Part shown: positions 9,570 through 11,197 of the stretch, piece after piece | Layout: each line of letters begins with the position of its first letter | Numbering within the stretch: position 1 is the first letter of the stretch | Origin: an uncultured Lachnospiraceae bacterium | GTDB taxonomy: Bacteria > Bacillota > Clostridia > Christensenellales > UBA1242 | Assembly (NCBI GenBank): GCA_964368355.1 | Contig: CAYJAO010000001.1 | Coordinates: forward strand, 1 to 30,573 | Direction: 5' to 3' | DNA length: 30,573 nucleotides | Made by a program: the position numbers and the translations under genes | The notes under the pieces: generated by a model | What the model was told of the DNA's origin: nothing | The model's input: only the letters and a program-made list of their open reading frames with translations | The model's database searches: none

Positions 9570-9596
9570 TTTGACCCACAATTTGACCCACAATTT
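9570..9596. repeat. 12-bp tandem direct repeat (TTTGACCCACAA x2) resembling tyrosine-integrase arm sites
   Basis: tttgacccacaa-tttgacccacaa-ttt, about 75 bp beyond the tRNA-Leu 3' end. Confidence 0.75.
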
Positions 9597-9668: not shown

Positions 9669-9753
9669 TGGTGCGGACGCCGGGACTTGAACCCGGACAG
9701 AGTTACCTACAAGATCCTTAGTCTTGCGCGTCTGCCAATTCCGCCACGACCGC
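9669..9753 (-). tRNA. tRNA-Leu, anticodon AAG (A34), CCA encoded
   Basis: GCGGTCG TG GCGGAATTGGCAGACGC G CAAGA CT-AAG-GA TCTTG TAGGTAACTCTGT CCGGG TTCAAGT CCCGG CGTCCGC A CCA. Long variable arm, A73, A15/U48, typical of Leu. One U5.U68 acceptor mismatch. Confidence 0.9.
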
Positions 9754-9755
9754 AC

Positions 9756-9949
9756 GTTTTCATTTGTTCCCCACTATATTCTTCGTTGCAAGACGTAAGC
9801 ATCTTGTACTGCATTTGCGAAAAGCAACATTAACAATTATATATATAATTTGTTTAGCGTGATGCTTTTCTTAATCCGGGCTTTTGCTATGCAACGCCCG
9901 TTGTCGCTAAAAACTTGCCCATTGGGGCAACTTTTCTTAACGCTCCAAC
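9756..9949. other. 194-bp hairpin-rich spacer between the tRNA-Leu gene and its duplicated 5' half (possible miniature element)
   Basis: Hairpins at 9789-9806, 9877-9900 and 9915-9930; perfect palindrome AATTATATATATAATT at 9835-9850; 10-bp direct repeat CTTTTCTTAA at 9865-9874 and 9931-9940. Confidence 0.6.
9909..9930 (-). terminator. Terminator-like hairpin downstream of the tRNA half-copy
   Basis: Minus strand TTGCCC-caat-GGGCAA-G-TTTTT. Confidence 0.5.
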
Positions 9950-9989
9950 CCTTAGTCTTGCGCGTCTGCCAATTCCGCCACGACCGCAC
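9950..9989 (-). pseudogene. Duplicated 5' half of tRNA-Leu(AAG), ending after G37
   Basis: 40 bp identical to 9716-9755 (offset 234); the sequence diverges directly after CTAAGG. Confidence 0.9.
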
Positions 9990-10048
9990 ATGTGTAAACC
10001 TTAAATAATTGGCATAACTTTAAGATTGTTGCTTTTTCAAGCATGTGT

Positions 10049-10077
10049 AATATACCATACAAACTGTATACTGTCAA
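10049..10077 (-). promoter_or_regulatory. Strong sigma70 promoter of the tRNA-Leu locus
   Basis: Minus strand TTGACA (10077-10072), 17 nt, TG-g-TATATT (10054-10049), with an AT-rich upstream region. Confidence 0.8.
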
Positions 10078-10210
10078 CTAATTTTAAAAAAATCTTATAT
10101 TTTTAATAAAAAAATCATGTCTACATTATATAATTCATCATCTATTAATAATGGCGATTTGTTTGATTGATAGAATTAATAAAATATATCATTAAGATAT
10201 GATTAATGCT

Positions 10211-10561
10211 TTATTTAAATCCTAAACTTATTAATAATGCCATATTCACGCTTCTCATTTTTGCGACATCAAGTTCGGAGATTTTTTCTTGCAATCTACG
10301 CTTGTCCAGCGTCCTTACTTGTTCCAATAATATAACACTATCTCTTGGCAGATTGTAATCAATAGCGCATAATTCAACATGTGTTGGTATCTTTGCTTTG
10401 CTTAATTGGCTTGTTATTGCCGCAACAATTACCGTCGGGCTGTATTTATTTCCCACATCATTTTGGATAATTAAAACTGGACGAACGCCACCTTGCTCAC
10501 TCCCCACAACTGGACTGAGATCGGCATAGTATATTTCTCCACGTTTAATTTGATTCTCCAA
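10211..10561 (-). CDS. mazF: MazF/PemK-family mRNA interferase (EndoA/NdoA-like toxin)
   Basis: [46 protein letters not shown] and [17 protein letters not shown]; TTG start with AAGGA 8 nt upstream. Confidence 0.95.
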
Positions 10562-10799
10562 ATTTTAAATCCTTTTCGTAATTTAGGTAGTTCAGTTCGA
10601 TATTGTCGTAATCTTCAAGTTCTTTCATTGCTCGCAAATAAGCGGGGCATAGGTAAGCATCTCGTACTAAACTATCCTTCACTGTCATATTATGCAAATC
10701 ATCTCTATATTCGTTCAGGGTTGAAGAAGGTAACTTTAATAATTCTTCGTTGTATTTTCCCCAATTTATTTCATTAGTTTTATTATTCTTTTTGCTCAT
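10545..10799 (-). CDS. Putative antitoxin (84 aa, acidic C-terminus, no recognisable DNA-binding fold)
   Basis: Lies upstream of mazF and overlaps it by 17 nt; ATG with GGGAG SD. Function inferred from position only. Confidence 0.6.
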
Positions 10800-11070: not shown

Positions 11071-11144
11071 TGGCAGGCGAGGTAGGAATCGAACCCACAT
11101 CAATGGTTTTGGAGACCATAGTTCTGCCGTTGAACTACTCGCCT
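11071..11144 (-). tRNA. tRNA-Trp, anticodon CCA
   Basis: AGGCGAG TA GTTC AACGGCA GAAC T ATGGT CT-CCA-AA ACCAT TGAT GTGGG TTCGATT CCTAC CTCGCCT G CCA. Confidence 0.97.
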
Positions 11145-11168: not shown

Positions 11169-11197
11169 AATATATCATATACACTAAATAATGTCAA
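11169..11197 (-). promoter_or_regulatory. sigma70 promoter of tRNA-Trp
   Basis: TTGACA (11197-11192), 17 nt, TG-a-TATATT (11174-11169). Confidence 0.8.

Follow-up and report, generated by a model that had tools for sequence, protein, structure and literature searches.

We analysed a stretch of 30,573 nucleotides (nt) from an uncultured Lachnospiraceae bacterium (GTDB order Christensenellales; assembly GCA_964368355.1, contig CAYJAO010000001.1, positions 1 to 30,573), referred to here as the window. On its minus strand, the promoter of a leucine tRNA gene, tRNA-Leu(AAG), is followed by the 5' half of that gene and, 234 nt further on, by the complete gene. We consider it probable (roughly 70%) that the 234-base-pair (bp) unit is a non-autonomous integrative mini-element that targets tRNA loops and restores the gene that it splits. 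The unit would comprise a 194-bp element body and a 40-bp carried tRNA segment, and would belong to a family of protein-less insertion elements 100-200 nt in length. It would have entered between positions 37 and 38 of the sole tRNA-Leu(AAG) gene. The copy of positions 1-37 carried at its far end would make the downstream gene whole, with the original 5' half displaced beside the native promoter. The insertion regenerates its target, and copies in other genomes show constant junction geometry, customised arms, tandem accretion and a patchy distribution. The element has no gene of its own, and its scaffold has a covarying, strand-specific fold.

The insertion in the tRNA-Leu(AAG) gene

The original prediction listed a promoter, a half copy of the tRNA, a hairpin with a U-run, further hairpins and the complete gene, in that order, and all of these features are present on the minus strand. 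The strong promoter (10077-10049) is of the sigma-70 type, with TTGACA at 10077-10072, a 17-nt spacer and a TG-extended TATATT at 10054-10049. It agrees with the consensus at 11 of 12 positions in a consensus scan. It is native to the tRNA-Leu(AAG) gene, being homologous to the promoters directly 5' of tRNA-Leu(AAG) in congeners and in another genome, G280. The leader of about 57 nt (10048-9990) that runs from the promoter to the original 5' end of the tRNA begins CATGCTTGAA..AGCAA, and is similar to the leaders of relatives.

An exact direct repeat of 40 nt, present at 9716-9755 and 9950-9989 with an offset of 234 nt, corresponds to tRNA positions -2 to 37. An exact match of this length at this distance is not attributable to chance. 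The half copy had been placed at 9987-9950, ending just past the anticodon. It is indeed exact, but the repeat reaches 2 nt further upstream (to 9989) and ends after G37, within the anticodon loop CT-AAG-GA. The upstream repeat copy (9989-9950) is the displaced original 5' part of the tRNA, with 2 nt of leader and positions 1-37, and is a dead fragment left attached to the native promoter. A 194-nt insert (9949-9756) that lacks an open reading frame (ORF) separates the two repeat copies. Its right boundary, AAC|GTGCGG, is identical in G280. The downstream copy (9755-9716), identified from the sequence, ARAGORN and a repeat search, would be the element-borne replacement (2 nt plus positions 1-37) that completes the functional gene.

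The intact tRNA-Leu(AAG) gene was identified at 9669-9753 by ARAGORN and by Rfam (tRNA model, 51 bits), at the predicted distance of 234 nt. Its 5' part is element-derived, and position 38 to the end is original. This is the sole AAG isoacceptor found in the assembly; tRNA-Leu(TAG) and tRNA-Leu(CAG) are encoded on other contigs. Leucine tRNAs with A34 (anticodon AAG) are rare among bacteria. The A34 tRNA-Leu(AAG) is kept across the genus and family (window, L006-L014, L019, L068, L218, L228 and L232).

Empty and filled sites in other genomes

Nine congeners and one family member have a homologous promoter 18-30 nt 5' of tRNA-Leu(AAG) and no half copy, and deletion of 234 bp from the window recreates the congener arrangement. 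A comparison with relatives had been proposed as a way to find an empty site, and the nine congeners in which promoter and tRNA-Leu(AAG) are contiguous provide it. Because of this contiguity, we conclude that the window carries a 234-bp insertion at 37|38. The repeat is without a mismatch and the nine congeners are empty; thus, the window copy is recent or has been kept uniform by gene conversion.

The orthologous site of G280 is filled. The promoter and both junctions are homologous to those of the window, and the two inserts share roughly 75-85% identity. The displaced half in G280 has decayed to about 32 matches in 40, and the downstream functional copy is intact. The same scaffold subfamily occurs at 37|38 of tRNA-Leu(AAG) in G280, G225 (L068), L219, L220, G237 and L218. 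In G225 (L068) and two metagenome contigs, the inverted copy of the anticodon arm described below matches their own, different anticodon stem. The G237 copy at tRNA-Leu(AAG) has kept the hairpin structure, with the apex replaced by another complementary pair of arms. L218 has at least two tandem units upstream of tRNA-Leu(AAG), and downstream a reversed scaffold of the same type adjoins a displaced 3' end. The original prediction included a minimal element that had inserted itself at the anticodon loop, bringing with it a substitute for the 5' half. This idea is supported by the empty sites in relatives, the presence of the same scaffold at many tRNA loop sites and the recurrence of the junction at tRNA-Leu(AAG).

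Logan contigs from other samples of four studies contain the junctions and confirm the one on the promoter side, which answers the concern raised earlier that the structure might be an assembly artefact. Within the parts of the stretch that they cover, to which our reading is confined, these contigs extend over 9907-10134 (run X5), 9916-9979 and 9950-10222 (run X1), and 9726-9989 (run X3). They bridge the junction between displaced half and insert and that between insert end and repeat; none of the listed contigs spans the entire 234-nt unit and both flanks. The presence of the junctions in other samples means that the arrangement is not confined to this assembly. Contigs of 264 and 262 nt from runs X3 and X4 equal the 234-nt unit plus the k-mer overlap, and one of them joins the insert end, via the repeat, to the insert start. 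The depth of the insert is about 1.5-2 times that of the flanks in both of these runs.

A folded scaffold with a customised arm

From 5' to 3' the element body would consist of a three-helix scaffold at the junction, an AT-rich variable spacer, an inverted copy of the anticodon arm and a short spacer with a -10-like hexamer. The scaffold (9949-9877) is predicted by folding and recurs in L068, L218, L219, L220, L059 and L232. In helix P0, 9949-9946 pairs with 9903-9900. P1 is a long imperfect hairpin (9943-9905) with an A-run and a T-run, a G.G mismatch, an AA bulge and an apex at 9930-9915, and P2 lies at 9899-9878. The P1 apex is near-invariant among copies that were drawn by the apex pattern. 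It forms six pairs with a 4-nt loop and, with T5 at 9913-9909, matches the terminator consensus; the hairpin and U-run at 9930-9909 had been flagged as terminator-like, and we likewise classify the feature as resembling an intrinsic terminator. A region of the scaffold at 9880-9856 was considered as a decayed tRNA 3' end. This was rejected, as it is the conserved P2 region of the scaffold subfamily.

Compensatory changes were identified within the window subfamily in P0 (GTTG/CAAC versus GTTC/GAAC) and in the inner P2 stem. In the outer stem of a 15-member subfamily of class 1 (classes are described below), all eight pairs have changed on both sides and 94% of cells are paired. None of 500 shuffles reached the observed covariation score, and slid controls were 37-64% paired. 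In 114 of 121 copies, the AAAGTTGCC...GGCAAGTTTT strand folds with greater stability than the complementary one (mean -20.7 versus -15.7 kcal/mol), and the fixed core accounts for just 1.3-1.9 kcal/mol of this difference. This asymmetry fits RNA or single-stranded DNA rather than a double-stranded protein-binding site. It is the sense strand of the tRNA that folds in the window. Gathering and permissive scans of the window against Rfam 15, and scans of 16 related loci, matched tRNA alone. Group I introns, split or permuted tRNA, transfer-messenger RNA, signal recognition particle RNA, T-box, Y-RNA-like, CRISPR/tracr and omega-RNA were rejected for want of a model match or an associated protein. 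The likeness of a GTTAAG box to the XerD arm of dif or to integron R boxes was too weak to use.

At 9808-9788, recognised from sequence and fold and conserved in G280, the anticodon arm of the target (tRNA positions about 26-45) is present as an inverted copy, a feature that recurs throughout the element family. It is 21 nt long, with one mismatch and one extra base, and forms a CAAGA/TCTTG hairpin of its own. The minimum-energy fold pairs this copy with 9960-9950 of the displaced half, enclosing the scaffold (z -2.6).

Distribution of the family and junction geometry

A stretch of 27 nt around the hairpin is identical in genome G007 and on another contig of the same assembly (C64), where it lies beside tRNA-Arg(TCT), and it recurs in congeners. 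We scanned a collection with one genome per species for the exact apex pattern, AAAGTTGCC and GGCAAGTTTT separated by a loop of 3-6 nt. The pattern was found in at least 118 genome stretches, against a chance estimate of about 17. According to record titles, these include Clostridia, Gastranaerophilales, Alphaproteobacteria, Campylobacterota, Arcobacteraceae, Treponema and others. Only three matches to the apex pattern were identified among 2.9 million viral contigs. An intact tRNA gene lies within about 500 nt in 60 of 122 sampled loci. The taxonomic family of the window includes a record titled Christensenella sp. UBA5893. BLAST matched the hairpin region in roughly 20 of 61 genomes sampled from this family, and in 6 of 14 genomes of the genus. 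A full-text search whose cover left out most subscription journals returned no description of such elements. The element family is widespread across many bacteria and apparently undescribed.

The tRNA pieces that surround the copies in some cases consist of the 3' part, from the T-loop on, duplicated 3' of the tRNA, sometimes in tandem. Other cases, such as tRNA-Lys(CTT) and tRNA-Ser(GCT) of G007, resemble the window in having a duplicate of the 5' part between promoter and gene. Tandem arrays of the element occur at several loci. On the C64 contig (L003, 1300-1680), tRNA-Arg(TCT) is followed by T-loop-type element copies with repeated tRNA 3' ends; this array contains a 100-N scaffold gap. 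Genome G224 (that of L096; CAKSOW01) contains about 100 copies (194 end matches) of a 380-560-nt miniature inverted-repeat transposable element (MITE) with TTGAACCGGTGCGA inverted repeats. We set it aside as a different element, bounded by TTGAACCGGTGCGA terminal inverted repeats, of which only some copies contain the same hairpin core.

Measured from the scaffold core, the junctions sort the copies into regular classes. In class 1 the tRNA ends about 84 nt 5' of the core, the left arm contains an inverted copy of the T-arm and GCGGAG closes the right arm; the displaced 3' part (from C56) begins 97-102 nt past the core. The left repeat copy of classes 2 and 3 invariably terminates after GG(G), at 12-15 nt ahead of the core, and the intact tRNA is 105-260 nt downstream. 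This left copy is either a sense 5' part, with its junction in the D loop, anticodon loop or variable region, or an antisense 3' part, with its junction at the border of T-loop and stem. L046 represents the fourth combination of orientation and side. Because all four combinations occur, the scaffold has no fixed orientation relative to tRNA transcription. The original prediction correctly described the duplication of a 5' half as unlike the usual 3'-end att duplication, and this arrangement is one of the four configurations in the element family.

The length of the repeat varies from 15 to 112 nt among copies, and the ends are derived from the target. Junctions in the family fall in D, anticodon and T loops, and that of the window lies after G37, at the centre of the stem-loop. 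In classes 2 and 3, an inverted target match of at least 8 nt that spans the junction was identified in 12 of 37 loci, compared with 6% in swapped controls.

Proposed mobilisation and target choice

We infer that integration is site-specific, at the centre of a tRNA stem-loop, and is carried out by an enzyme acting in trans, most plausibly a tyrosine recombinase. Both tRNA-targeting tyrosine integrases (PMC4383910) and recombinase-less cis-mobilisable elements (CIMEs; PMC5704250) follow the same logic. The scaffold and the inverted target copy may fold as a single strand, of DNA or RNA, that presents or recognises the target.

The mini-element explanation is favoured by the clustering of the neighbouring genes of about 120 loci (519 ORFs), in which no protein family occurred in more than four loci. 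A number of observations weigh against this explanation. IS110 (PF01548) was identified in none of five genus genomes and reverse transcriptase was likewise not found in the five, and IS200/IS605 occurs only on one small contig (C88) of the genome to which the window belongs. About half of the element-bearing genomes, and of the element-free ones alike, have serine recombinases, which therefore do not track the element. G280, G226, G265 and G273 bear elements yet show only one tyrosine recombinase, of a housekeeping type; a recombinase of this type was found in 60 of 61 sampled family genomes (none was detected in G272) and in every genus genome searched. Counts of tyrosine recombinases do not correlate with element presence, and we saw no link to the element. 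No tyrosine recombinase is known to require a covarying hairpin at a distance of 14 nt from the crossover, nor an inverted copy of its target some 100 nt off. The cycle-like contigs, one of 264 nt in run X3 and one in run X4 that goes back by 217, could equally fit tandem copies, a circle or a cycle in the assembly graph by way of the 40-nt repeat, and neither an excised or circular form nor an empty allele within the population was demonstrated. In addition, the window genome is a metagenome-assembled genome (MAG; 0.61 Mb in 91 contigs) that is 84% complete, and the fixed apex pattern by which the family sample was drawn biases what counts as invariant.

This leaves either a transient enzyme or elements that are fossils. 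Spread among related genomes may occur by homologous recombination through the conserved tRNA halves, which would leave retargeting unexplained. The small contig C88 (2.7 kb; L221, L223, L224) encodes IS200/IS605 genes, a Y1 transposase and a TnpB-like protein, which were not found in four congeners.

A more far-reaching idea is that the element is programmable. The scaffold would be mobilised in trans, and the insertion point would be chosen by base-pairing of the inverted copy and the carried tRNA part with the tRNA-loop target. We regard this as tentative, with the odds against it. The element would then act as single-stranded DNA or RNA, new arms alone would suffice to retarget it, and the enzyme would be an unrecognised activity of the host or a transient recombinase or nuclease.

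Expression of the restored gene

Transcripts from the strong promoter would start with the half-tRNA, followed by the scaffold. Mature tRNA-Leu(AAG) may be produced by read-through past the hairpin and U-run and cleavage by RNase P, or from a weak promoter borne by the element. A -10-like hexamer, TATAGT (9778-9773), read from the sequence 19 nt 5' of the restored tRNA, is a possible candidate for the latter; the consensus scan identified no full promoter near it. Other 5'-side copies, such as those at tRNA-Trp(CCA) in L059 and L164, likewise have this hairpin between promoter and tRNA. Its position before a single-copy tRNA-Trp(CCA) suggests that the hairpin does not abolish tRNA expression.

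Alternative explanations

The unit could be the deletion scar of a larger, integrase-bearing island, that is, a CIME whose cargo was lost and whose att (attachment) arms were fused. A displaced fragment beside a restored gene is the classic footprint of an island (Islander, PMC4383910), and CIMEs are known (PMC5704250). In L142 (460-4050), a scaffold with displaced fragment is separated from the intact tRNA by 3.6 kb of phage-like cargo, the products of which are small-terminase-like, ParB-like and radical SAM proteins, and in G007 an integrase fragment is found beside tRNA-Leu(AAG). However, the L142 islet lacks an integrase, the repeat is more than 600 nt away in only about 1-3 of about 120 loci, and an integrase adjoins none of them. 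Independent deletions at dozens of tRNAs, in several phyla, would not be expected to arrive at one architecture of 100-200 nt. The scaffold is nearly absent from viral contigs, and a covarying single-strand fold is unexpected for double-stranded att arms. We therefore think a scar of this kind improbable. A local origin has still less in its favour. A simple tandem duplication of the tRNA 5' half, or an assembly artefact, would be conceivable given that the repeat is only 40 nt long and that de Bruijn contigs break at it. However, 40 nt is shorter than a read, the junctions are present in contigs from four other studies, and the 194-nt insert is foreign sequence that is common to other genomes. 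We attach almost no weight to this explanation.

Two further possibilities assign the scaffold a role as RNA. It may be a cellular or selfish gene for a trans-acting non-coding RNA of which the tRNA fragments are a part, and which might target, for example, the cognate tRNA or enzymes that touch tRNA loops. Covariation and the G.U-dependent strand preference fit an RNA, the scaffold directly follows a strong tRNA promoter in the window and at other 5'-side copies, and the customised arm could pair with a tRNA. Single-stranded DNA would give the same covariation, however, and the occurrence of all four combinations of orientation and side, including copies behind terminators and antisense copies, implies that there is no constant transcription context. 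The tandem arrays, and the patchiness of the element among close relatives, resemble mobile DNA, and an RNA gene thus seems a poor candidate. The original prediction also raised a functional version specific to this locus, in which an attenuator, or a dedicated half-tRNA RNA of about 135 nt ending at the hairpin and U-run, limits the A34 tRNA. A consensus promoter and a terminator-like hairpin do occur in the right order, and reduced output of tRNA-Leu(AAG) could be tolerable since tRNA-Leu(TAG) and tRNA-Leu(CAG) are present. Against this, the hairpin is a module that members of a mobile family have in common and did not evolve at the window locus, and the fold of the unit includes no alternative anti-terminator structure. 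The same hairpin precedes single-copy tRNAs such as tRNA-Trp(CCA) elsewhere, which argues against blocked expression. As the scaffold is also found 3' of tRNAs and antisense to them, its presence is not explicable as an attenuator specific to one locus. An attenuating RNA appears unnecessary to explain the data, and we judge it very unlikely.

Genomic context

The terminator of the tRNA-Leu gene was identified by consensus scan at 9659-9642. Within the variable spacer of the element, an AT-rich, near-perfect palindrome (9853-9832) was found from sequence and fold; it is not conserved in G280. Neighbouring genes are of housekeeping type and include ileS, a methyltransferase, a pseudouridine synthase, pepF, a mazEF-like pair, tRNA-Trp and lgt. 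Directly 5' of the tRNA-Leu promoter is a gene for a MazF/PemK-type toxin (10211-10561, minus strand; region 10211-10799), and an 84-amino-acid ORF upstream, which overlaps it, is the likely antitoxin. The tRNA-Trp(CCA) gene (11071-11144) has a promoter at 11169-11197 of the same TG-extended type as that of tRNA-Leu. Just 3' of the tRNA-Leu terminator (9570-9593) there is a tandem pair of TTTGACCCACAA, and relatives have TTGGGTA(T/C) pairs at the same place. The tyrosine-integrase fragment that adjoins tRNA-Leu(AAG) in G007 is located at G007:C1:156694-156822. The TTTGACCCACAA and TTGGGTA(T/C) pairs and this fragment may be remnants of a conventional island on the 3' side of the gene.

Implications

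If these units are integrative mini-elements, the tRNA genes of many gut and digester bacteria would host a large, unannotated population of 100-200-nt parasites that persist by mending the gene they interrupt and that carry an arm matched to each target. The element would then mark a recombination activity that recognises both folded nucleic acid and tRNA-loop DNA, which would be of interest for programmable insertion if the target is chosen by base-pairing. Such elements would also account for the recurrent annotation of 'half-tRNA', 'pseudo-tRNA' and tandem tRNA fragments in MAGs, and for assembly breaks at tRNA loci. Insertions on the 5' side would set a terminator-like hairpin between a strong promoter and its tRNA, and may alter tRNA supply, here that of a rare A34 leucine tRNA.

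Comparison with known systems

Islands that integrate into tRNA genes regenerate the gene from a carried tRNA part and leave the displaced fragment at their other end (Islander, PMC4383910). The mini-element shares with tRNA-integrating islands and prophages, which use a tyrosine integrase, the split at a stem-loop centre, the regenerated gene, the displaced fragment as a direct repeat and tandem accretion. Unlike islands, it is 0.1-0.2 kb in size, has neither an integrase nor any other gene, and uses D-loop sites in addition to the anticodon-loop and T-loop sublocations known for islands and prophages. The identity block in the window is the 5' part (-2 to 37), so that the element sits between promoter and gene, whereas other family members use the 3' part. 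In place of conventional arm sites there are a covarying hairpin scaffold and an inverted target copy.

CIMEs are att-flanked forms derived from integrative and conjugative elements (ICEs) or integrative and mobilisable elements that have no recombinase and that occur in tandem alongside other units (PMC5704250, PMC6323972). Att-like flanking repeats, the absence of recombination or transfer genes, and tandem occurrence are common to CIMEs and the mini-element. However, CIMEs are kilobase-sized decay products of a specific parental ICE, whereas the scaffold of the mini-element has been retargeted to dozens of tRNAs across phyla. We saw no parental element among the loci; one integrase-less 3.6-kb islet (L142) carries the scaffold. 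Like MITEs, the mini-element is small, non-coding, present in multiple copies and, if mobile, dependent on an enzyme in trans. In contrast to MITEs, it has neither fixed terminal inverted repeats nor a target-site duplication of fixed length, and its ends are derived from the target.

Introns of archaeal and eukaryal tRNAs occur at 37/38, and bacterial group I introns occur in anticodon loops. The insertion point at 37|38 and an internal segment complementary to the anticodon arm are features in common. Unlike these introns, the element has no splicing signal or group I fold, and the second 5' half removes the need for splicing. The bridge (seek) RNAs of IS110/IS1111 elements combine a structured scaffold with target-customised parts. 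The logic here is similar, in that a scaffold is combined with copies of the two target sides, the left in sense and the right in antisense. However, the 'sense copy' of the mini-element is a true DNA duplication of 20-110 bp, and its scaffold is unrelated and has no Rfam match.

Integron attC sites and CTX-phage attP(+) are imperfect, strand-specific hairpins that are conserved in structure and mobilised in trans by a tyrosine recombinase. The mini-element resembles them in having a strand-specific imperfect hairpin with mismatches and bulges, in the conservation of structure over sequence, and in being non-autonomous. It differs in that its target is a tRNA loop rather than attI or dif, in that it carries a long copy of the target gene, and in that no link to IntI or Xer was seen. 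A folded recognition structure reminiscent of integron attC or CTX attP is what would be new relative to the islands. The window itself shows the configuration on the 5' side, at 37|38 of tRNA-Leu(AAG), and comes from a lineage with reduced genomes (0.5-0.9 Mb in congeners).

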